64,000 nt of DNA from Bacillota bacterium (GCA_012837385.1 DURH01000001.1:1349-65348); one strand, 5' to 3'; counted from the first letter of the stretch, positions 2,058 to 12,780 are shown. Numbers and translations are program-made. The notes: a model not told the origin generated them from the sequence alone.

Positions 2058-2270
2058 GTGCTGGACACTTTGGCGGAGGATAAGAAGAAGCAGAAGCAGA
2101 AGCGGCCGCAGAACAGAGCACACAATCAAAAAGCTTCCGGACTAGTCAACGCCAATCATTTCTTCGAAACAAGCGAGGAATTGGCTAACCGCCAACAAGA
2201 CGCGCAGCGCAAAGCCCAGAGCGGCACACAGCAACAGCCGGGCAAGAAAAACCCAGAAGGACCGGGTTAG
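2058..2270 (+). CDS. small Q/K/N-rich hydrophilic protein (hypothetical; possibly a minor SASP-like protein)
   Basis: 66-70 codons. AGGAGG lies directly upstream, so the start may be TTG at 2070. The ORF ends just before the hairpin at 2281-2303. GC3 is high, like neighbouring genes. No identifiable domain. Confidence 0.25.
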   Translation: MLDTLAEDKKKQKQKRPQNRAHNQKASGLVNANHFFETSEELANRQQDAQRKAQSGTQQQPGKKNPEGPG

Positions 2271-2303
2271 ATCAAAACAAAAAGGGAGCATCAGCTCCCT
2301 TTT
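2271..2303 (-). terminator. rho-independent terminator downstream of tRNA-Ala
   Basis: On the minus strand: AAAGGGAGC-TGAT-GCTCCCTTT followed by TTTTTGTTTTG. Confidence 0.6.
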
Positions 2304-2318
2304 GTGCTCAATAGCAGC

Positions 2319-2394
2319 TGGTGGAGATGAAGGGACTCGAACCCTCGACTTCCACGTTGCGAACGTGGCGCTCTCCCAGCTGAGCTACATCCCC
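2319..2394 (-). tRNA. tRNA-Ala (anticodon CGC)
   Basis: Reverse complement is GGGGATGTAGCTCAGCTGGGAGAGCGCCACGTTCGCAACGTGG...GGTTCGAGTCCCTTCATCTCCACCA. It has a G3:U70 pair, anticodon loop TTCGCAA, a T-loop GGTTCGAGTCC and an encoded CCA. Confidence 0.9.
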
Positions 2395-2999: not shown

Positions 3000-4094
3000 A
3001 TGAAGGTCGTGTGGGTGGTCAGGCCTGCAGAAGGGGGAATTCTGCACCATCTGAGGCAGCTGTTAGCAGGGCTTCCCGATTGGGAAATCACCGTGGTGGC
3101 ACCGGCAGCTCTCCAAGAAGTGCTGGATGTCCAGCACTTTATCGATCTAGAGTTAGTAGATGGCTTGCGTCCCAAGGAAGATTTCTCCGCGGTGAGGAAG
3201 CTGAGGCGCATTTTGAAGCAGGAACAAGCCCAAATCGTGCATGCCCATGGCTTGAAAGCGGCCCTGATTACTGCTGCTGCTCTAGCTCCAAGGCGGCACC
3301 CCCATTTCTTGTTTACAGCCCATAATGCCCTACCTCAGAGTTCGTCGAGGTTCACGGGCTGGGCCTCCACTCTGGTGCAGCGCTGGATGTTCAACTGCAT
3401 GAGCACCATTATCAGCGTATCAGATTCGGTGCGCTCCCAGATTACCCGCTACGTCCCTGAGGGGAAAGTGCTCACCATTTACAATGGGATTTGCTCCAGT
3501 CAGTTTGGGGAATGCCCTGTAGAAGTGTCCCGCCGTTCCCTTGATTTGCAGGAGGAAGACCAAGTGGTGGGCACAGTGGCCCGCCTGATCCCTGGGAAGG
3601 GAGTGAGCACTCTCTTGGAAGCCGTTTCACTGGTAGCCAAGATCCTGCCCAGGCTCCACCTGGTTGTGGTGGGGGATGGGCCTGAGCGCGCCAAGCTGGA
3701 GGCCTACAGCAGGCGCTTAGGATTGGCAGATCGAGTACGCTTCCTAGGCTGGAGAGAAGATGTACCCACCCTGATGGCGGGCTGGGACTGTTTTGCTTTG
3801 CCCAGCCTTAGTGAGGGCTTCAATTTAAGTGTGCTGGAAGCCATGGCCAGCCGCCTGCCGGTAGTGGTGTCAGATTTGCCCGCTCTGCGGGAAGCCGTGA
3901 TCCATGGCAAAGGAGGGTTTCTTGTCCTCCCAGGCAGTGCACCCGATCTGGCCGCGGCACTCCTCCAAGTGCTGAAGGATCCCGCCAAGGCTAAGACCAT
4001 GGGGGCCTTTAACCGAGACAGGGTGGAAACCTGTTTTGGTGCCGAACGCATGGTCAGCTGCACCAGAGCGCTCTATGAAGGTATGATCACATGA
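3000..4094 (+). CDS. glycosyltransferase family 4 (GT-B fold)
   Basis: The C-terminal half carries the GT4 E-x7-E region (FALPSLSEGFNLSVLEAMASRLPVVVSD). Its stop overlaps the next gene's start (ATGA at 4091-4094). Confidence 0.8.
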   Translation: MKVVWVVRPAEGGILHHLRQLLAGLPDWEITVVAPAALQEVLDVQHFIDLELVDGLRPKEDFSAVRKLRRILKQEQAQIVHAHGLKAALITAAALAPRRHPHFLFTAHNALPQSSSRFTGWASTLVQRWMFNCMSTIISVSDSVRSQITRYVPEGKVLTIYNGICSSQFGECPVEVSRRSLDLQEEDQVVGTVARLIPGKGVSTLLEAVSLVAKILPRLHLVVVGDGPERAKLEAYSRRLGLADRVRFLGWREDVPTLMAGWDCFALPSLSEGFNLSVLEAMASRLPVVVSDLPALREAVIHGKGGFLVLPGSAPDLAAALLQVLKDPAKAKTMGAFNRDRVETCFGAERMVSCTRALYEGMIT

Positions 4095-6370
4095 AGCTCA
4101 AGCCCGTTGCGGTGCTGCTGGGGGCCTTGGTGGTTTTGGCTTGGTGTCTCTGCTCTCCTGGTGTATTGGCAGGGCAGACCGCCGCTGAGCAGGTTGTTTT
4201 GGTGCTATGGCACGGCTTAACTATGGAAGACGCGGCAATCCTACGGCTGCAGGGACCTGTGGCCTTAGGGCTGCTTAACACCAGAGCCGGGGGAGGAGAC
4301 AGCCTGTCAGCAGCCTACCTCAGTATCGGCGCGGGAGCCAGGGCTGTGGGCTGGAGAGGGGCAGCGGCCTTCCAGCCCAGGGAGGTGGCAGAGCACCTCT
4401 ATCGGCGCAACACAGGATTAGAACCAGGAGTCTATATCCAGCCGGACATTGCCCTGATTTGGGCAGCTCAAGATGTGAGCTACCGGGTGGAGCTGGGTGC
4501 CCTTGGGACTTCTTTTCTGGAAGCTGGGGAAGGGGTCAGGGTACTGGGAAACAGCAGCGGGTCCAGCGATTACCACTGGGGGGCCTTAACTGCAATGGAC
4601 AGCTTCGGCCGCATCTGGCAGGGGGAGATTGATACGGAGTTTCTCACTGCGGACCCCCGCTACCCTTTTGGAGTGCGCACCGACTATGCCCAGCTGGCCC
4701 AGGCGGTGTGGGATGCCGAGGAAAGGCTGATCGTGGTGGATTTGGGGGATCCTTTCCGCTGTGATTTGTACCAGGAGTACCTCCTACCTGAGCAGCGGGA
4801 GACAGTGCGCGCTGTGATGGTGGGGGAGGCGGCGGGCTTTGTGGAGGGGCTGTCCCGAGAGCGCCCTGAAGGAACAGTACTGATTTTGATCAGCCCCCAT
4901 CCCCCTCTGGGAGCCGCCAGGGAGGGGAAATGGTTGACTCCAGTAATCTTAGTTGGACTCCAGGAAGGGCTTTTGATTTCCGCCACCACTCGTTGGCCGG
5001 GAATCATCACAAACATGGATGTGGCCCCAACTATACTGCGGCTTCTGCAGATCAGCCATACCCAGCCCTTTATTGGACGAGCAGCGGCAGTAAAGGAGAC
5101 AGGGGATGCCAGAAACCAGCTGGCCGCCATGGCGGGGAAAATCAGCGCTCTCTCTCGCTGTCGCAGCCTGGTTCTGCGCTTGGTTGTGATCGCTCAAATA
5201 GGGGTCTACACAGCCGTCTTGGTTTCTTTGATTCTCAGCAGCCAGCTGCCTGACTGGACTGTGCGGGCCCTGCAATCAGCCCTTCTAGCCCTGCTTTCCA
5301 CGCCGTTGGCGCTGCTCTTCTGGGATATCAGTCCTCTGCTCTCCGCCCTGATTCTGCTGGTGGTGATCCTTGGGGGAATGAAGTACCCCCGGCCGCTGCT
5401 CTTGGTGGGCGTGGTCTCGCTGCTCACCAGCGCAGCCCTGAGCGTGGATATCCTGAGTGACAGCCGGCTGATGCGCTACTCGCCTCTGGGATATGACCCC
5501 GTGGGGGGAGCCCGTTTTTACGGCATTGGCAATGAATACATGGGTGTTCTGGTGGGATCCAGCATAATGGCCTGGGCCATTTTCGCTGGTGGAAGGAGGG
5601 AGCGCTGGGTTCAGCTCCTGGGACTAGCGCTGTTTGCTGGGCTGATTGTGCTTATCGGGGCCCCACCCCTAGGGACGAATGCTGGAGGGGCTATCAGTGC
5701 GGTGTTCGGCTTCGCAGTTGTGTGGCTGGGGTTGGCTGGAATCAAAAGGGGCTGGGTGAGCGCTGCCGCGGCAGCCTTCTGCGCGGTGCTGGTCTTAGGT
5801 TTGTTTGCCTGGCTGGACAGCGCTAACCCTGAAGATCAGCAGTCCCATATAGGGCAGGCGGCGGAGCTGTTTCGCCGCGATGGCGCCTCAGCCTTGTTGT
5901 TGATTATCCAACGCAAGCTGGAAATGAACCTTAGGCTGCTGCGTTACAGCATCTGGAGCCGCGCCCTCATTGTCACCCTGGCCGCCATGTCAGCCAGCTT
6001 TATCTGGCCCTCTAAGTTCATTTCTTGGCTGAAAAAAAACCACCCCGCTGCCTCCAAGGGCATCGGCGGGGTGGTGCTCGGCGCTGTTGCTGCTTTGATT
6101 TTCAACGATTCAGGAGTGGTGGCTGCAGCTACCTGTATCAGCTTCGGCTCTTCGCCTTTACTCCTGCTGGCGCTGGGCTCAAAACATGATCTTACTGCGC
6201 CGCAGGCCCACGTTGAGAATGACAGCCACCGCCATCAGACTGGTGATCATGGTACTCCCCCCAGCAGTGATAAAGGGGAGGGGAAGCCCAGTAACGGGCA
6301 TGATGCCCAAGGTCATACCCACATTAATGATCAGATGGAAGAAGAAAATGCTGGTAGCCCCCGCGGCTAA
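4091..6370 (+). CDS. large membrane protein: signal peptide, an alkaline-phosphatase-superfamily-like ectodomain of about 330 aa, then a C-terminal polytopic TM domain of at least 10 helices
   Basis: The signal reads MKLKPVAVLLGALVVLAWCLCSPGVLAG. Ectodomain motifs are LWHGLT, TRAGGGDS, ISPHPP and NMDVAPTILRLL, the last being the D-x-A-P-T-x-L signature of alkaline-phosphatase-fold enzymes. The C-terminal 400 aa are strongly hydrophobic. The 3' 192 nt overlap the convergent SEDS gene. Confidence 0.7.
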   Translation: MKLKPVAVLLGALVVLAWCLCSPGVLAGQTAAEQVVLVLWHGLTMEDAAILRLQGPVALGLLNTRAGGGDSLSAAYLSIGAGARAVGWRGAAAFQPREVAEHLYRRNTGLEPGVYIQPDIALIWAAQDVSYRVELGALGTSFLEAGEGVRVLGNSSGSSDYHWGALTAMDSFGRIWQGEIDTEFLTADPRYPFGVRTDYAQLAQAVWDAEERLIVVDLGDPFRCDLYQEYLLPEQRETVRAVMVGEAAGFVEGLSRERPEGTVLILISPHPPLGAAREGKWLTPVILVGLQEGLLISATTRWPGIITNMDVAPTILRLLQISHTQPFIGRAAAVKETGDARNQLAAMAGKISALSRCRSLVLRLVVIAQIGVYTAVLVSLILSSQLPDWTVRALQSALLALLSTPLALLFWDISPLLSALILLVVILGGMKYPRPLLLVGVVSLLTSAALSVDILSDSRLMRYSPLGYDPVGGARFYGIGNEYMGVLVGSSIMAWAIFAGGRRERWVQLLGLALFAGLIVLIGAPPLGTNAGGAISAVFGFAVVWLGLAGIKRGWVSAAAAAFCAVLVLGLFAWLDSANPEDQQSHIGQAAELFRRDGASALLLIIQRKLEMNLRLLRYSIWSRALIVTLAAMSASFIWPSKFISWLKKNHPAASKGIGGVVLGAVAALIFNDSGVVAAATCISFGSSPLLLLALGSKHDLTAPQAHVENDSHRHQTGDHGTPPSSDKGEGKPSNGHDAQGHTHINDQMEEENAGSPRG

Positions 6371-7321
6371 GAGCGTACCGTAGGTGTCTTTGGCAATGGC
6401 GGCTATGTGCAGGCCCCGCCAGATGAGCAGGACGAAGAGGGCCAGTACAAACAGGGAGCCCAAAAAGCCGAACTCCTCAGCGATCACGGAGAACACAAAA
6501 TCGGTATGGTTGGCAGGCAAGAAGTGCAGGGAACTTTGGGTTCCTCCCAACACGCCCTTGCCTAGAAATCCGCCTGAGCCAATGGCGATGATGGATTGAA
6601 TGACGTTCCAGCCCGCACCATCTCTGTCAGCGTAGGGGTTCAAGAACACCAAGATTCGGGTGAGTTGGTAGGGTTTGATCACCTTGAGCCAGCCCTGCAG
6701 GGAGGCGACAACTACTCCTACACCAACTGCGATGAGTGAAAATCCAGCAATTAAGAGGTCTTTTAGGCGAGCGTTGCCCACATACCACATGGTGAAAAAC
6801 AGGCCGACAAAAATCACCGCGGTACCGAGGTCAGGCTGGATTAAAATAAGGCCCATGGGAACGAGCGTAAGCAGGGCTGCCTGAGCAATGCCCTTCATGG
6901 AGAGGGCGTTTTCTTCCTTTTCGAAAAACCGAGCGAGTGCTAAAACCAGGGTGATTTTGGCCAGCTCAGAAGGCTGGAGGCTCAGGGGGCCCAGGCGCAT
7001 CCAGCGCTGGGATCCAAACACACTCTTTCCGAAGACGAGCACGCCTACTAGAAGGATGATGGAAGCCAGATAAATCAGCTTGGACCAGCGTTTCCAGGCT
7101 CTGTAATCGATGGATATGATCACTATGGACAGAACCAGGCCGATGACGAAGGCTAGGGCTTGGCGTTGGACATAATGGAAAGGGTTGAGGCCAGCCGCTG
7201 CCAGCTGGGAATGAGATGCGGAATAAATGACCACCATGCCGATGGCAGTGAGGCATAGGACCGCGAGAATTAAGAGCCAATCTAAGTTGCGCCAATAGCG
7301 TCGAGGTATGTTCATCGGCAT
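6179..7321 (-). CDS. SEDS-family peptidoglycan glycosyltransferase (RodA/FtsW/SpoVE)
   Basis: A 10-TM protein with an N-terminus YWRNLDWLLILAVLCLTAIGMVVIYSAS and conserved SEDS blocks (PSELAKI, GGTQSSLHFLP...TDF). Confidence 0.85.
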   Translation of the reverse strand: MPMNIPRRYWRNLDWLLILAVLCLTAIGMVVIYSASHSQLAAAGLNPFHYVQRQALAFVIGLVLSIVIISIDYRAWKRWSKLIYLASIILLVGVLVFGKSVFGSQRWMRLGPLSLQPSELAKITLVLALARFFEKEENALSMKGIAQAALLTLVPMGLILIQPDLGTAVIFVGLFFTMWYVGNARLKDLLIAGFSLIAVGVGVVVASLQGWLKVIKPYQLTRILVFLNPYADRDGAGWNVIQSIIAIGSGGFLGKGVLGGTQSSLHFLPANHTDFVFSVIAEEFGFLGSLFVLALFVLLIWRGLHIAAIAKDTYGTLLAAGATSIFFFHLIINVGMTLGIMPVTGLPLPFITAGGSTMITSLMAVAVILNVGLRRSKIMF

Positions 7322-7385
7322 CCCCCTTTCCGTTTTCCCATCCCATTATACCTGTTTTTTCACGGCCAAACTAGTCCAAAAGGAG

Positions 7386-7414
7386 TTGACCCCCATTTTC
7401 GCCTCTGTTATAAT
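7386..7414 (+). promoter_or_regulatory. sigma-A-type promoter for the tRNA-Lys/tRNA-Leu pair
   Basis: TTGACC (7386-7391), a 17-nt spacer, then TATAAT (7409-7414). The promoter lies about 20 nt upstream of tRNA-Lys. Confidence 0.7.
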
Positions 7415-7434
7415 ACAATAGCATTGATCAGCAG

Positions 7435-7510
7435 GAGCCATTAGCTCAGTCGGTAGAGCACCGGACTTTTAATCCGGGTGTCCCGCGTTCGAGTCGCGGA
7501 TGGCTCACCA
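7435..7510 (+). tRNA. tRNA-Lys (anticodon TTT)
   Basis: GAGCCATTAGCTCAGTCGGTAGAGCACCGGACTTTTAATCCGG...TTCGAGTCGCGGATGGCTCACCA. The acceptor GAGCCAT pairs with ATGGCTC, and the anticodon loop is CTTTTAA. Confidence 0.9.
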
Positions 7511-7531
7511 TCCAATTTTTCGCAGTGATGT

Positions 7532-7617
7532 GCAGGCGTGGCGGAACTGGCAGACGCGCTAGACTTAGGATCTAGTGGGCAGACCCCGTGAGAGTTCGAC
7601 TCTCTCCGCCTGCACCA
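7532..7617 (+). tRNA. tRNA-Leu (anticodon TAG), long variable arm
   Basis: GCAGGCGTGGCGGAACTGGCAGACGCGCTAGACTTAGGATCTAGTGGGCAGACCCCGTGAGAGTTCGACTCTCTCCGCCTGCACCA. The anticodon loop is CTTAGGA. Confidence 0.9.
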
Positions 7618-7708
7618 TTTTCATATACATAACTGGCTGCACCTTTTAGTGTGCTTTTTTTGCGCTTACAGTAGTGAGCGTTCACATAGTGAAAGGAGAT
7701 TTTGCATT

Positions 7709-9073
7709 ATGGCAACCAAACTGGAGAAACTGGAAAACAGCAGAGTTAAGCTAACCGTAGATATAGATGCCGATGTATTAGAGCAAGCTATGCAAGAAGC
7801 TTACCGCCGGAATGTGAAAAGGATCAACATTCCAGGCTTTAGAAAGGGGAAAGCTCCCCGCAAGATTATTGAACTCAACTACGGACCTGATGTTTTTCTG
7901 CAGGATGCTGTGGAGATCCTCCTGCCCAGGCTGTATGAAGAAGCGGTTGAAGAGACCCAAATTCGCCCTGTAGACCAGCCCGACGCTGATCTCACAGAGG
8001 TAGAGCGGGGGAAAGGCGCGACTTTCACCTTCACAGTGGATGTCTATCCCGAACTCACCCTTGGTAACTACAAGGATCTGGAAGTAGAACGGGAAATCGT
8101 CACCATCACCGATGCAGACGTGGAGAACGTCCTCAAGCAGCAGCAGGAACGCAGCGCCCAACTTGTGGTTTCAGAACGTACAACCGTGCAGGAGGGAGAC
8201 TTCTGCGTTATCGACTTTATCGGCTACGTTGACGGCAAGCCCTTCAGCGGCGGAGCAGGGGAGAACCAAGTGTTGGAGATCGGCTCTGGCCGGTTTATCC
8301 CTGGTTTTGAGGAGCAGCTCATTGGCTTCGAAGTCGGCCAAACCTCCGATATTAATGTAACTTTCCCAGAGACTTACCACGCTGAGGAATTGGCAGGCAA
8401 AGACGCAGTCTTTTCCGTGACCGTCAAGGAGCTCAAGGAAAAGGTTGTACCCGAGCTCGATGACGAGTTCGCTAAGGATATCAGCGAGTTCGATACCATG
8501 GAAGAGCTGAGGGCCACCATCCGAAAAAACCTGGAGGACGAGGCTACCCGCAGAACCAACGCCGCGATGGAGAATAAACTATTAGAGCGCATTGCCGAGG
8601 ACAGCGAGGTGGAAGTTCCACAATCCATGGTTCGTCACGAGGCAGAGCACCTCTACGAGATGTTCATCTACAATCTGGCCGGCCAGGGCATTGGTGAAGA
8701 GATGTACCTGGAGATGACCGGGCAGAGCAAGGAGCAGCTGCTGGAGAACTTCCTTCCTCAGGCGGAGACCAGAATCATCCATGACCTCATCCTAGAGGCA
8801 ATCCGGGAAAAAGAAGGTATTGAGGTTTCCGATGAAGAAATCGATGATAAGATCACAGAGTACATGGAAGAGTATGGCGACGGCGACCTTGATCCTGCTG
8901 CCCAGGAACGGATGCGGGAACACTATGAAAAGAACAGAACCGGCATAGCCAATTCTCTGGCTCGTGAGAAGACTATGAAGGTTATTGTGGACAGCGCTCG
9001 CATTACCGAGGTAGAAGCCGCTCAAGACTCAGAGCAGTCAGAAGTAGAGGAAGCGGAGGAATCTGCAGAGTAA
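7709..9073 (+). CDS. tig: trigger factor
   Basis: [20 protein letters not shown]..., with an FKBP-type PPIase middle domain ([11 protein letters not shown]...[12 protein letters not shown]). AAAGGAG RBS sits 10 nt upstream of ATG 7709. The listed ORF starts 20 codons earlier, which is probably spurious. Confidence 0.9.
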
Positions 9074-9095
9074 GAACAGAAAGGCGGGGAGAGAC

Positions 9096-9704
9096 TTGAG
9101 TGTTTTAATCCCAATGGTAGTTGAGCAGACGAATCGGGGGGAGCGGGCTTTTGACATATACTCCCGACTCCTCAAGGATCGGATCATCTTCTTGGGAGGA
9201 CCCATCGATGATCATGTGGCTAACCTAGTCATTGCCCAGCTTTTGTTCTTGGAATCTGAGGATCCTGACAAGGATATTCACCTGTATATAAACAGCCCAG
9301 GCGGGGTAATCTACTCAGGATTGGCCATTTATGACACCATACAGTACATCAAGGCAGATGTATCCACTATCTGTGTGGGCATGGCTGCCAGCATGGGCGC
9401 CTTATTGCTTAGTGCTGGGACGAAGGGCAAGCGCTTTGCACTCCCCAACTCCCGGATAATGATTCACCAGCCCCTTGGCGGTGCTCAGGGACAGGCGAGC
9501 CAGATCGAGATTCAGGCCAAAGAAATCCTGCTCCTCAAGTCACAGATTAACGATATTCTCCATCACACCACTGGTCAGCCCTTAGAAAGAATTCAGCAGG
9601 ATACGGATCGTGACTACTACATGTCCGCGAAGAGCGCGGTGGAATACGGTCTAATTGATGGTGTCCTTACCCAGAGGCAGGTTCAGAACAGCCAGGGGCA
9701 GTAA
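9096..9704 (+). CDS. clpP: ATP-dependent Clp protease proteolytic subunit
   Basis: [23 protein letters not shown] with catalytic residues [14 protein letters not shown]...MIHQP. The start is probably TTG 9096 after GGGGAGAG. ATG 9114 is an alternative. Confidence 0.9.
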
Positions 9705-9724
9705 GTGACAAATGAGGTGATTGG

Positions 9725-10987
9725 ATGTTCAAATTTGGCGATGAAAAAGGACAGCTGAAGTGTTCTTTTTGCGGCAAAATGCAGGAACAAGTTAAGAAAC
9801 TCATCGCCGGTCCAGGGGTCTATATCTGCGATGAATGCATAGAGCTCTGTAACGAGATCATCGAGGAAGAGTTTACTGAAGATCATGATCTGGAACTGGA
9901 TAGCGTACCCAAGCCCAAGGAAATCCGAGAGGCGTTGGATGAGTACGTTATCGGCCAGGAAGAAGCCAAAAAGACACTGGCTGTCGCCGTATACAACCAT
10001 TACAAGCGCATCAACAGCAACCTCAGAACCGATGATGTTGAGCTCCAGAAGAGCAACATCCTCATGCTGGGGCCTACTGGGAGCGGCAAGACCTTTTTGG
10101 CCCAGACGCTGGCTAAGATTCTCAACGTTCCCTTTGCCATCGCCGATGCTACCAGCCTCACTGAGGCCGGTTACGTGGGCGAAGATGTGGAGAACATACT
10201 GCTCAGGTTGATTCAAGCAGCAGATTACGATGTGGAGCGGGCGGAAAAGGGCATCATTTACGTGGACGAAATCGACAAAATCGCCCGTAAGTCTGAGAAT
10301 CCATCCATCACCCGCGATGTATCTGGAGAAGGCGTACAGCAGGCACTGCTGAAAATTCTGGAGGGTACCATTGCCAGTGTCCCACCGCAGGGTGGACGCA
10401 AGCATCCCCATCAGGAGTTCATCCAGATCGATACCACCAATATTCTGTTCATCTGCGGCGGTGCCTTTGACGGGTTGGAGAAGATTATTGAACGCAGAAT
10501 TGGGCAGAAGAACATCGGCTTTGGTGCCGAGGTGTTGACCCGCGAAGAAAAGAAGATCGGGGACATTCTGCGTAAGATTATGCCTGAGGATCTGCTGCGC
10601 TATGGGCTGATTCCAGAGTTCATCGGACGTGTACCCGTGGTTTGCACGCTGGACGCCCTGGATGAGGACGCTTTGGTGAGAATCCTCACTGAACCTAAAA
10701 ATGCCTTAGTGAAGCAGTTCCAAAAGCTTCTGCAGATGGATGATGTCACCCTGGAGTTTGAGCCTGAAGCCCTGCGCCTCATTGCAGCCAAGGCTTTGGA
10801 ACAGAAAACCGGAGCCAGGGGTCTGCGCACCGTTGTAGAAGGGCTTATGCTGGATGTGATGTACAGCGTTCCCTCTGAAGAGGATGTCTCTAAGTGCGTA
10901 ATTACCAAAGCTGCCGTGGAGAAACAGGAACAGCCCTTGGTGGTCAGGAGCAAGAGCAAGGGCAAAGGAAAAGAAGAAAGTGCGTAA
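9725..10987 (+). CDS. clpX: ATP-dependent Clp protease ATP-binding subunit ClpX
   Basis: N-terminal zinc finger CSFCGK...CDEC, Walker A GPTGSGKT, and an AAA+ core. Confidence 0.95.
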
Positions 10988-11085
10988 ACACGCTGTAAGT
11001 TGCGGATAAGCTGGGTAACCAGCTTATCCTTTTTCTTTCTCCTGGGCATAATAGCAAGTGCAAGCTTGGGAGAGGAGCGGCGGTA

Positions 11086-12780
11086 ATGGAAATTCTGGGG
11101 TTAGTTAACCTGTTCTTTGCCATAGTGATCGGCCTCTATTTCTGGAACCTCCTCCGTCAGCAGCAGGGCAGCAAGACAGCTGTTGACAGAGAATCGCGCA
11201 GGGAAATGGACAAACTGAGGCGCTTGAAAAGCATTGCCCTCACTGAACCCTTGTCAGAGCTGACCCGGCCAAAGGCCCTGCAGGAGATCATAGGTCAGAG
11301 CGATGGGTTGAAGGCTCTGCGAGCCGCGCTGTGCGGAGCCAATCCCCAGCATGTGATCATCTACGGGCCTCCAGGAGTGGGGAAGACAGCAGCTGCAAGG
11401 GTGGTGCTGGAGGAGGCCAAGAAAAACCCCCTTTCACCCTTTGCCCACGATGCTGCCTTTGTGGAAGTGGATGCCACCACCGCCCGTTTTGACGAAAGGG
11501 GCATTGCTGATCCCCTGTTGGGTTCTGTGCATGATCCCATCTATCAAGGTGCGGGGCCCCTGGGCGTGGCAGGGATTCCTCAGCCCAAACCAGGCGCGGT
11601 AACCAAAGCCCATGGCGGCGTCCTGTTTATTGACGAGATTGGCGAGCTGCACCCCATCCAGCTCAACAAACTGCTCAAGGTACTGGAAGACCGCCGGGTG
11701 TTTTTGGACAGCGCCTATTACTCGTCTGAAGACAGCAATATCCCACCGCATATCCACGACATTTTCCAAAACGGCTTGCCCGCGGATTTCAGGCTGGTTG
11801 GGGCAACCACCCGTTTGTCCACTGAGCTGCCCCCGGCGCTCCGCTCACGCTGCCTGGAAATCTATTTCCGCAACCTTACTCCAGAGGAGATCGGCAGCAT
11901 TGCTGCTAATGCAGCGGAAAAGATCAAACTTCCCCTAGAACCTGCCGCCCTGGAAGAAATCAAGCGCTTCGCCGCCAACGGACGGGATGCTGTAAACATG
12001 GTTCAGATCGCGGGAGGAGTTGTGCTCAGTGAAGGGCGTAAGGTTATTGCCAAAAGAGATGTAGAGTGGGTACTGAGCTGTGGGCAGTACGCGCCTAGGC
12101 CCCAAAACCGCATCAGACAGGAACCTGCTGTGGGGGTTGTGAACGGGCTGGCCATGTACGGCCCCAATCTGGGGACCGTGATTGAGGTGGAGGCCACTGC
12201 GGTGACCGCTGATCGCGGCCATGGGGGAGTCAAGGTCACAGGCGTGATGGAGGAAGAGGAGTTTGGGCGCCAGGGGCGCACCATGCGGCGCCGTTCTCAG
12301 GCCCGGTCATCGGTTGACAATGTCCTTACGGTACTCAGGGTTTCCCTGGGGTTGAGGCCGCAGGATTACGATATTCACATCAACTTCCCAGGCGGTATTC
12401 CTGTGGATGGTCCGTCCGCTGGTGTGAGTATGGTAACTGCAGTGGCGTCGGCACTGACCAATAGGCCGGTCTCCAATATCGTGGCCATGACAGGAGAGGT
12501 GACCATCCACGGCTTGGTCAAGGGCGTAGGGGGTGTGGTTCCTAAGGTGCGTGCGGCAGTGGAATCGGGGGTCAAAAAGGTTCTTATCCCGGAAGAGAAC
12601 TGGCAGGACATTTTCGCGGGCTTGCAGGACGTGGAAGTGGTGGCGGTGGGTACCATTGAAGAAGTACTCAAGCATGCCCTGCTGCAGGTGAGCGAGGAGG
12701 TGCAGTTTTCCACCGCTTCCCACGGTCACAGTACCTTATTAGGAGCGTCTCCTAAAATCACCCCAGGAATAATTCCCTGA
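11086..12780 (+). CDS. lonB: Lon-like protease LonB (membrane-anchored, sporulation-type)
   Basis: N-terminal TM (LVNLFFAIVIGLYFW), AAA+ Walker A GPPGVGKT, and a C-terminal Lon protease domain (DGPSAGVSMVTAVASALT). It lacks the LonA N-domain. The tig-clpX-lonB-lon-engB order matches Bacillus. Confidence 0.8.
   Translation: MEILGLVNLFFAIVIGLYFWNLLRQQQGSKTAVDRESRREMDKLRRLKSIALTEPLSELTRPKALQEIIGQSDGLKALRAALCGANPQHVIIYGPPGVGKTAAARVVLEEAKKNPLSPFAHDAAFVEVDATTARFDERGIADPLLGSVHDPIYQGAGPLGVAGIPQPKPGAVTKAHGGVLFIDEIGELHPIQLNKLLKVLEDRRVFLDSAYYSSEDSNIPPHIHDIFQNGLPADFRLVGATTRLSTELPPALRSRCLEIYFRNLTPEEIGSIAANAAEKIKLPLEPAALEEIKRFAANGRDAVNMVQIAGGVVLSEGRKVIAKRDVEWVLSCGQYAPRPQNRIRQEPAVGVVNGLAMYGPNLGTVIEVEATAVTADRGHGGVKVTGVMEEEEFGRQGRTMRRRSQARSSVDNVLTVLRVSLGLRPQDYDIHINFPGGIPVDGPSAGVSMVTAVASALTNRPVSNIVAMTGEVTIHGLVKGVGGVVPKVRAAVESGVKKVLIPEENWQDIFAGLQDVEVVAVGTIEEVLKHALLQVSEEVQFSTASHGHSTLLGASPKITPGIIP

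Follow-up and report, generated by a model that had tools for sequence, protein, structure and literature searches.

Several known envelope enzymes of bacteria contain a domain with the alkaline phosphatase (AP) fold. In LtaS, EptA (MCR-1), OpgB and BcsG, an extracytoplasmic AP domain is carried by a polytopic membrane domain, in the context of envelope polymers. Here we describe a protein with the same two parts in the opposite order. It is encoded by an open reading frame (ORF) of 759 amino acids, found at positions 4091-6370 of a 64,000 nucleotide (nt) stretch of DNA from a Bacillota bacterium (GCA_012837385.1, DURH01000001.1:1349-65348); this whole stretch is referred to as the window. The ORF is a real gene, and its product is one of a large family of membrane proteins which occurs in bacteria and has no name. 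The general kind, in which an AP-fold domain is joined to a polytopic protein of the envelope with a probable place in a glycan pathway, is known. The family, however, corresponds neither to a catalytically standard AP, nor to LtaS/EptA, nor to PIGN. From gene context and layout, we propose with a probability of about 0.4 that the family protein would act at the outer face of the membrane, in a pathway for glycans linked to polyprenyl-(di)phosphate, and would transfer the glycan to an acceptor in the cell wall.

The family differs from LtaS, EptA, OpgB and BcsG in its reversed domain order, in having 11 transmembrane (TM) helices instead of about 5, and in that neither the Asp-His pair nor the nucleophile is conserved. 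To have the ectodomain first is unusual for bacteria. The original prediction, an earlier reading of this DNA, had described the order as inverted with respect to known enzymes. The order itself, ectodomain first and TM domain second, is as described, but it is not unique: PIGN, PIGO and PIGG (Mcd4, Gpi13 and Gpi7) also have an N-terminal anchor, with the AP-type domain placed between it and a large bundle of TM helices, and they keep the AP catalytic residues. Nevertheless, these proteins are eukaryotic, only the domain order is common, and no PigN-type Pfam match is found in the family TM domain (E≤10). They are the ethanolamine-phosphate transferases of glycosylphosphatidylinositol, with multiple TM helices and lumenal catalytic sites (PMC7125958).

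Two other AP-type proteins should be compared. PbgA/YejM is a pseudo-enzyme which senses lipid or lipopolysaccharide. Its periplasmic domain is AP-like, has a catalytic site which is impaired, and is a structural match to our ectodomain (5i5d). On the other side, the TM domain of PbgA comes first and has 5 helices, its context is the lipopolysaccharide of Gram-negative bacteria, and it is not known to have a conserved glycosyltransferase partner. iPGM and phosphopentomutase (PPM), both covered by PF01676, are the closest AP subfamily by sequence, as judged from one relative (P0083), and have a C-terminal D-x-A-P-T-I-L helix motif in common with the family. On the other hand, they are cytoplasmic, soluble and bimetallic, and their metal ligands are mostly absent in the family. 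A likeness of another kind is found with SEDS proteins, O-antigen ligase and Wzy. In these enzymes, which contain 10-12 TM helices, Arg residues of a long outer loop bind the diphosphate, and a His, Asp or Glu activates the acceptor (PMC10920833).

The gene, its parts and its immediate partner, a family 4 glycosyltransferase (GT4), are the following:

4091-6370, + strand: ORF of 759 amino acids, with signal or anchor, AP-fold ectodomain, 11 TM helices and tail
4091-4094, + strand: ATGA start/stop overlap, a signature of translational coupling, in the sequence ...ATCACATGAAGCTC; many relatives share the 4 nt overlap (gap -4)
4091-4171, + strand: predicted signal peptide or signal anchor, amino acids 1-27, made of MKLK, 17 hydrophobic residues and VLAG/Q
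4172-5107, + strand: extracytoplasmic domain with predicted AP-superfamily fold, amino acids 28-339, from Foldseek, conservation in 189 sequences and hhalign to phosphopentomutase
5108-6184, + strand: membrane domain with 11 TM helices, amino acids 340-698, from the AlphaFold2 (AF2) model and the positive-inside tally
5489-5545, + strand: motif of outer loop and TM5 start, GYDPVGGARFYGIGNEYMG, amino acids 467-485; R475, Y477, G478, G480, N481, E482 and G485 are invariant in 189 Bacillota-type sequences
5840-5929, + strand: long outer loop with two amphipathic helices, QSHIGQ...RKLEMN, amino acids 584-613; H586, R608 and K609 are invariant, N613 is conserved at 98%
6101-6115, + strand: short outer loop FNDSG, amino acids 671-675; N672, D673 and G675 are invariant
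3000-4094, + strand: GT4 glycosyltransferase of 364 amino acids, the cytoplasmic partner, with Pfam matches to Glycos_transf_1 (5e-40) and Glyco_transf_4 (7e-21)

The family is large. A hidden Markov model (HMM) search of 1.84 billion cluster representatives (50% identity) gives 3,035 proteins at E≤1e-30, and at least 573 relatives are found in GTDB species genomes. Most of them are Clostridia-type Bacillota, such as Desulforudis, Desulfoscipio, Thermoanaerobacterium, Caldanaerobacter, Geosporobacter and Dethiobacter. Bacilli (Tepidibacillus, Marinithermofilum) and some metagenome-assembled genomes (MAGs) of Actinomycetota also carry the gene. Close relatives with a name are simply called Bacillota or Firmicutes bacterium, and relatives with 41-45% identity are named Limnochordia, with one Candidatus Darwinibacter. 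Nearly all are labelled as hypothetical proteins; P0076 is labelled as a phosphoglyceromutase. Scans with Pfam and NCBIfam, covering the whole protein, each of its halves and 34 relatives, give no family, only weak matches to the AP clan. In the literature we have found no described family with an AP ectodomain and a C-terminal TM domain. This is a large, confidently modelled family which has neither a Pfam or NCBIfam model nor a solved relative of its membrane half.

The ORF begins at the first ATG downstream of a stop codon. The GT4 gene ends in ...ACATGA, and the ATG of the ORF (4091-4093) overlaps its TGA (4092-4094). The same ORF of 759 amino acids, together with its overlap with the downstream gene rodA, recurs unchanged in independent assemblies of ENA and JGI, on at least 24 contigs. 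The N-terminus is plausibly a Sec signal, and amino acids 5-20 are helical in the AF2 model. In relatives which are fused to other domains, the equivalent segment must serve as an internal TM helix. The original prediction of a cleavable signal peptide is in agreement with the Sec-like sequence, while its cleavage stays a prediction.

At the level of the fold, and as judged from the model, the ectodomain belongs to the AP superfamily. The AF2 model of the 759 amino acid protein was built on 34 diverse homologues, with a pLDDT of 88.2 and a pTM of 0.86. When residues 28-339, approximately, are compared with the PDB by Foldseek, only AP-superfamily structures are matched. LtaS (2w5r, E 9e-5) is the top match; the others are iPGM, ENPP7, sulfatases, NPP, PPM and the globular domain of PbgA/YejM (5i5d). 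All have a probability of 1.0. For LtaS, iPGM, ENPP7, sulfatases, NPP and PPM, the E values go from 9e-5 to 4e-3 and the target-normalised TM-score is about 0.4. As for sequence, P0083 passes the Pfam Metalloenzyme model (PF01676, 25.2 bits, cutoff 24.3) over the entire ectodomain. At E≤0.1 this model matches 2 of the 34 family members; Sulfatase (PF00884) also matches two of the 34, at E≥0.02. The 759 amino acid protein itself is matched neither by Sulfatase, nor by Metalloenzyme, nor by Phosphodiest. A profile search of PDB sequences gives iPGM, sulfatases and VP1736 below threshold (E 0.2-4), and the only stretch aligned is the D-x-A-P-T-I-L helix. The AP-superfamily ectodomain which had been predicted is thus borne out by the model (pLDDT 88), by Foldseek and by the Metalloenzyme match of P0083: The N-terminal domain is predicted to be AP-like and no structural match contradicts it, but the Pfam models miss the protein and only one relative passes.

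The catalytic site is a different matter. Conservation was studied in 189 non-identical members of the Bacillota type, 71 from the clade of the 759 amino acid protein (own clade) and 118 more distant. The register was checked by hhalign against the PPM of B. cereus, whose sequence was verified against 3M8W; we infer the mapping of residues at a low hhalign probability (9.7%), with the support of the AF2 strand order and not of a superposition. The four positions expected in an AP site are occupied as follows:

β1 metal ligand (Asp/Glu): His41 in the 759 amino acid protein; His in 70 of 71 own-clade members; Asp in 92 and Asn in 20 of 118 distant members
Nucleophile after β2: Ala66 in the 759 amino acid protein; Ser 26, Ala 11, Thr 9, Gly 7 and Val 7 in the own clade; Thr or Ser in 101 of 118 distant members
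Asp-His pair (GDH in LtaS, ADHG in PPM): Pro269-His270 in the 759 amino acid protein; Pro-x in the own clade; Pro-x in distant members
Last His ligand: without conserved counterpart in the 759 amino acid protein, in the own clade or in distant members

The actinobacterial copies carry Pro or Gln as their β1 residue. The nucleophile position has been assigned from the alignment and the AF2 secondary structure. P269 is conserved at 94%, while position 270 is variable. In the hhalign alignment to PPM, P269-H270 stand opposite the Asp-His of ADHG, and E278, which is not conserved, stands opposite the His of DHTRE. Other ectodomain residues are invariant: D220 and R223 in the motif DLGDxxR, T300 in the motif TTR, and several glycines. 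Taken from conservation, the AP pocket is still under selection, yet it has no standard AP metal and nucleophile site.

The His of the β1 position is part of a W-H-G triplet (4208-4216, amino acids 40-42), kept in the same 70 own-clade members; in distant relatives, β1 ends in x-Asp-x instead. Such a clade-wide change looks like a switch under selection rather than random decay, and it might mean an altered metal or ligand. The original prediction had named four motifs as AP hallmarks (LWHGLT, TRAGGGDS, ISPHPP and D-V-A-P-T-I-L). They are in the correct structural positions, but the canonical catalytic residues are missing from them, as His41, Ala66 and Pro269-His270 indicate.

This bears on the function which was first suggested for the protein: an active phosphotransferase or hydrolase of the AP type, similar to LtaS, EptA, OpgB or PIGN, whose TM domain would hold a lipid donor while the ectodomain passes a phospho-substituent of this donor (glycerol-phosphate, phosphoethanolamine or sugar-phosphate) to the product of GT4. 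The AP fold is present and LtaS is the top Foldseek match; the mouth of the pocket is under selection, with D220, R223 and T300 invariant and the β1 Asp and Thr/Ser66 frequent in distant members, and the own-clade His in W-H-G could reflect a change of metal instead of decay. Against this, the metal-binding Asp-His pair of LtaS, EptA, sulfatases and PPM is Pro-x in the whole family, the last His ligand has no conserved counterpart, and the nucleophile is Ala in the 759 amino acid protein and variable in its clade. Moreover, the β1 Asp is replaced by Asn in some distant members and by Pro or Gln in the actinobacterial copies, and the three Pfam models miss the protein. Phospho-enzyme chemistry of the LtaS/EptA type is unlikely with such a degenerate catalytic set, and so is an LtaS/EptA-like transfer of a phospho-substituent by the 759 amino acid protein. 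The transfer step of the original prediction is not supported by these residues, and we regard an active AP-type enzyme as the least probable of the functions considered here.

The membrane domain gives a better defined picture. When modelled alone it has a pLDDT of 92.7, and 11 TM helices are counted, in line with the ten or more which had been predicted after the ectodomain. Its topology is N-out/C-in. In the positive-inside tally of the 189 sequences, the short inner loops have a net charge of +0.9 to +2.9, while the short outer loops are close to zero or negative. The architecture of the fusions leads to the same result: A family 2 glycosyltransferase (GT2) lies between the last TM helix of the first copy and the anchor of the second, so the C-terminus of the family protein must be cytoplasmic.

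All the conserved motifs of the TM domain are located at the outer face. The motif at amino acids 467-485 has the family form GYDPxxGARFYGIGNEYMG. The long outer loop has 49 residues (amino acids 576-624), with the family motifs QSHIGQ and RKxxMN. D453, at the end of TM4, and the motif APxLGTNVGG are also conserved. In an actinobacterial fusion protein (P0182), both copies retain D453, R475, N481, H586, R608-K609, N613 and N672-D673.

The layout of these residues recalls that of SEDS, O-antigen ligase and Wzy, and the likeness is one of layout only: There are 11 TM helices, and R475, H586, R608-K609 and D453/D673 are on the outer side, with R475 in the outer loop which precedes the long one. 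If TM1 is set aside, the remaining ten helices and the long TM8-TM9 loop parallel TM1-10 and extracellular loop 4 of SEDS proteins. The logic of the pathway is also similar, since there are cytoplasmic glycosyltransferase and flippase partners. The differences are that those enzymes are not known to carry an AP-fold ectodomain, and that no FTSW_RODA_SPOVE or Wzy_C match is found in the family. A local alignment with SEDS is suggestive (GS..MR..LGYDP with GSQRWMRLGPLSLQPSE, APxLGTN with QPDLGT), and we do not count it as evidence. The TM half is outside every described family.

The protein might instead transport or flip what the partner glycosyltransferase makes, a glycolipid or a lipid-linked sugar, with the AP-like ectodomain as a receiving lid. 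Its conserved Gly-rich intramembrane motifs (GARFYGIGNEYMG, LGTNVGG and NDSGVVAAAT) resemble the sites for substrates or ions in secondary transporters, a gene for a separate flippase is absent from most Bacillota loci, and the top Foldseek matches, which are not significant, include membrane domains of ABC transporters, a bile-acid symporter and a CAX exchanger. We consider a transporter quite unlikely, in view of several facts: There is no significant similarity to any transporter fold; a search for an internal repeat in the TM domain matched only a trivially overlapping slice; a MurJ-family flippase is encoded directly upstream in the actinobacterial loci, which would make a second one redundant; and the conserved residues cluster solely at the outer face, not along a transmembrane path.

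Further information comes from the genes found next to the family gene in 80 related loci which we fetched. The GT4 partner has no NCBIfam equivalog at cutoff, and its nearest solved structures (HepE-like Alr3699, BshA and PglA-type enzymes) are all distant. In 40 of the 80 loci, the family gene has a GT4 gene directly beside it on the same strand, and these GT4 genes form a single cluster. The 40 loci include all the near-clade loci with an upstream flank (14/14) and 26 of 59 distant ones. GT4 is upstream or downstream depending on the locus, often with a 4 nt overlap, and there is one further example besides the 80 loci. The coupling to GT4 which had been suggested for this locus is therefore a conserved feature in half of the loci, with a 4 nt overlap or tight adjacency.

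A striking case is that of three independent fusions of actinobacterial type, about 1,780 amino acids long, in which a GT2 is placed between two copies of the family protein. In all three, a gene of the MurJ family (PF03023; TIGR01695 190 bits, below cutoff) lies upstream with a 4 nt overlap, and it is preceded by an mctB-like steB gene (L085, L086 and L087, from MAGs of Actinomycetota). Downstream of all three there is a gene coding for about 280 amino acids, 35% identical (E 4e-20) to a Thermoanaerobacterium protein which passes Pfam PF00953, the MraY/WecA family. Only one of these loci (L085, 2130-12206) has an upstream flank of sufficient length, and here the block is included in the order nadK-recN-steA-steB...pyrG. 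A different arrangement is seen in P0121 (1479 amino acids; L090:3114-7553), where two complete family copies are found in tandem in a single ORF. Such a tandem suggests that the family protein may work as a dimer.

Similar genes are found in three Bacillota loci, from a Thermoanaerobacterium sp. and two MAGs, one of them from Tepidanaerobacteraceae. In these, an operon for SteA, an MctB-like SteB, a GT2 and a PF00953-like protein is divergent from the family gene. For example, in L056 the SteA-SteB-GT2-PF00953-like module occupies 4287-7860 (-), beside the family gene at 7992-10211 (+); L034 and L068 are alike. SteA from these Bacillota is 47-49% identical to actinobacterial SteA, and their GT2 shares 37-40% identity with the fused domain. 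Polyprenyl-phosphate sugar synthases and GpgS are the nearest families to the recurring GT2, although none of them reaches its cutoff. SteA and SteB have a predicted ligand which is carbohydrate- or nucleotide-like. SteAB is a septal transmembrane complex which positions the cell-separation hydrolase RipA, and it occurs in some Clostridia beside spo0A (PMC12977500). Neither the family gene nor the GT2 and the other glycan genes are mentioned in the SteAB papers which we consulted, that one included.

Other immediate neighbours are SpoIIP (Caldanaerobacter), IreB (eight Alkaliphilus-type loci) and RodA (own clade). Together with SteA/SteB, MurJ, GT2 and the MraY/WecA-like protein, they agree in general terms with the link to glycopolymers or the cell wall which was proposed at first. 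That proposal was drawn from rodA and from a small divergent gene, but these two are neighbours in the near clade, not in the whole family; among the 80 loci, adjacency to rodA is confined to near-clade loci and L049. The IreB loci are of the Alkaliphilus/Geosporobacter type (L020, L024, L029, L037, L039, L040, L060 and L064, at about 7700-11600). In them, the family gene and an iron-sulfur aldo/keto reductase gene have been inserted into the alaS-ireB-ruvX cluster, where they separate ireB from ruvX. Some other neighbours have been rejected as partners. Downstream Bacillota genes coding for 425-476 amino acids, which were considered as flippases, are M16 peptidases, tRNA synthetases, TldD, an amidase, GH4 and LepA. 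We have judged speH, the menaquinone genes (futalosine pathway) and alaS-ireB...ruvX to be housekeeping synteny, with the possible exception of IreB.

With such neighbours, the protein could also be a non-catalytic sensor or scaffold similar to PbgA/YejM, which would bind a glycolipid or a lipid-linked intermediate and regulate synthases or hydrolases of the wall, for example RodA or the hydrolase controlled by SteAB. The degenerate AP site, the presence of the globular domain of PbgA among the Foldseek matches and the possible dimer suggested by the tandem fusion are consistent with this, and regulators or organisers of wall remodelling (SteA/SteB, IreB, RodA) adjoin the gene in separate lineages. 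Nevertheless, the dense group of invariant Asp, Arg, His, Lys and Asn on one face of the TM domain is more like an active or transport site, and the tight coupling or fusion which appears repeatedly is to enzymes (GT4, GT2 and PF00953-like), as is usual for a step in a pathway. A regulator of this kind seems unlikely to us.

The recurring partners (glycosyltransferase, MraY/WecA-like and MurJ-type proteins) correspond to the cytoplasmic and flipping steps of a polyprenyl-phosphate-linked pathway, and the family protein is the only component of this recurring gene set with a conserved site at the outer face. This partner logic, together with a layout similar to that of enzymes acting on sugar-diphospholipids, makes transfer of the flipped glycan the most likely role. 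We infer the substrate, the reaction and the acceptor from context and layout. The pathway would start with a cytoplasmic glycosyltransferase making a lipid-linked saccharide; this would be the coupled GT4 in our locus, and a GT2 with a short MraY/WecA-like initiating enzyme elsewhere. The saccharide would then be flipped, and it is a MurJ-type flippase gene that adjoins the family gene in actinobacterial loci. At the outer face, the cluster of Arg, Lys, His and Asp and the AP-like pocket (D220, R223 and T300) would bind the phosphate-sugar head group, the pocket holding either the phosphate-sugar or the acceptor. Finally, the glycan would be ligated or polymerised onto an acceptor in the cell wall. 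The SteA/SteB, RodA, SpoIIP and IreB neighbours hint at action in places of wall growth, division or sporulation.

Several results weigh against glycan transfer. When the TM domain is compared with the PDB by Foldseek, no significant match is found (best E 0.27); the highest TM-score among the 50 matches listed is that of E. coli RodA (8tj3_B, 0.38/0.40), with an E of 1.4. Pfam and NCBIfam give no match in the TM region, Pfam even at E≤10. The hhalign comparison with a SEDS profile gives no evidence of homology: The score (23.9) falls inside the block-shuffle null (median 16.4, 90th percentile 21.0, maximum 25.3), and inside a reversed-profile null as well. D469 and E482, which are invariant in Bacillota, are substituted in the actinobacterial fusions. 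About one third of the distant loci have no adjacent glycosyltransferase at all, and neither in the window nor in most Bacillota loci is there an adjacent gene for a flippase or an initiating enzyme, the other neighbours being housekeeping genes. Finally, the products of GT4 enzymes also include glycolipids of diacylglycerol, and the lipid carrier could therefore be a different one.

A more ambitious version of the glycan transfer proposal is less likely, though it has a realistic chance. The family would found a new class of outer-face transferases for polyprenyl-diphosphate-linked glycans, with a new or extremely diverged TM fold and a repurposed AP-like domain to handle either the acceptor or the pyrophosphate-sugar. 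Together with the septal SteA/SteB complex and with MurJ-type, GT2 and MraY-like partners, the family protein would install an undescribed glycopolymer or peptidoglycan modification of the wall at division or sporulation septa, both in Bacillota and in Actinomycetota. If the family protein is indeed the outer-face enzyme of a lipid-linked glycan pathway, spore-forming anaerobes would have a new enzyme class for cell-wall assembly, SteAB would gain a biochemical context, and the AP fold would have been reused without its usual catalytic machinery. In two phyla the family gene adjoins SteA/SteB, recently characterised regulators of cell-separation hydrolases.

The 3' end of the gene overlaps rodA, which is convergent. 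The features of this region are:

6179-7321, - strand: rodA, SEDS peptidoglycan polymerase, convergent; TIGR02210 389.7 bits (cutoff 336.7), PDB match to E. coli RodA (8tj3_B, E 8e-70)
6179-6370, no single strand: convergent overlap of 192 nt; the triplet boundaries are common to both frames, with codons exactly opposed
6185-6370, + strand: cytoplasmic tail rich in His, Gly and Asp, amino acids 699-759, and stop codon; lineage-specific and largely disordered

The overlap covers the last 64 codons of rodA, stop included. Since the codons are opposed, the 759 amino acid ORF can only stop opposite the rodA codons TTA, CTA or TCA. All the near-clade relatives (L001-L025) overlap rodA too, also with opposed codons, along 27, 42, 60, 69 or 99 nt, and stops of relatives are found at codon 9, 14 or 20 of the rodA overlap. 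Codon 705 of our ORF, where a stop is found in relatives, is CAG, opposite a rodA Leu codon (CTG). After it, the next possible stop is the TAA at 6368-6370, opposite a rodA TTA. Differences with relatives in the overlap are found at position 3 of rodA codons. For example, the comparison with L002 gives 3, 0 and 26 differences in positions 1, 2 and 3, while the C-terminus of RodA is 94% identical. Even the C-terminal K-H-D/N-L which is conserved in the protein of this clade results from reading, in antisense, the codons for K-I-M-F at the C-terminus of RodA.

After TM11 the tail has 61 amino acids, compared with a family median of 6, and residues 705-707 and 712-759 have a pLDDT below 50 in the AF2 model. 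A hydrophilic character, rich in His, Asp and Gly, is what is expected from the antisense of codons for hydrophobic TM segments. Comparison of the sequences indicates a read-through particular to this lineage, which depends on the synonymous codons used in rodA; the predicted tail would not be a functional domain. A sequencing error is ruled out by the identical ORF on at least 24 contigs. The original prediction had suspected an artefact of a stop-poor antisense frame: The rodA antisense frame is indeed poor in stops, but the stop is no annotation artefact, as the frame contains no stop before it and many assemblies have the same ORF. No convincing intrinsic terminator is found between the two convergent genes, as expected for overlapping genes. 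This is a clean case in which a synonymous change in one gene extends another protein by about 55 residues.

The remaining neighbours in the window are less directly related to the family. The small divergent gene lies upstream of GT4:

2482-2910, - strand: divergent membrane-anchored protein of 142 amino acids, without family, conserved only in the near clade

Further upstream there are a tRNA-Ala gene, a YegS/diacylglycerol kinase-like gene and a Kbl-like gene. Beyond rodA, the order is tRNA-Lys, tRNA-Leu, tig, clpP, clpX and a lonB-like gene, the last one read from its translation. In the first 12 kb, Rfam detects three tRNA genes and nothing else. A promoter-like site is found at 7386-7414 (+), with TTGACC, a 17 nt spacer, TATAAT and a TG extended -10, giving 11 of 12 matches. 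It is located just upstream of tRNA-Lys(ttt) at 7435-7510 (+), which is followed by tRNA-Leu(tag) at 7532-7617 (+) and then by tig. With its start at GTG 7649, the tig ORF has 474 amino acids. This is probably an overestimate, because 454 amino acids are called in other assemblies. The tRNA-Ala(cgc) gene, at 2319-2394 (-), lies between the diacylglycerol kinase-like gene and the small divergent gene. Just upstream of it, at about 2072-2272 (+) as converted from L081 coordinates, other assemblies call an unannotated ORF of 66-70 amino acids, in the equivalent stretch.

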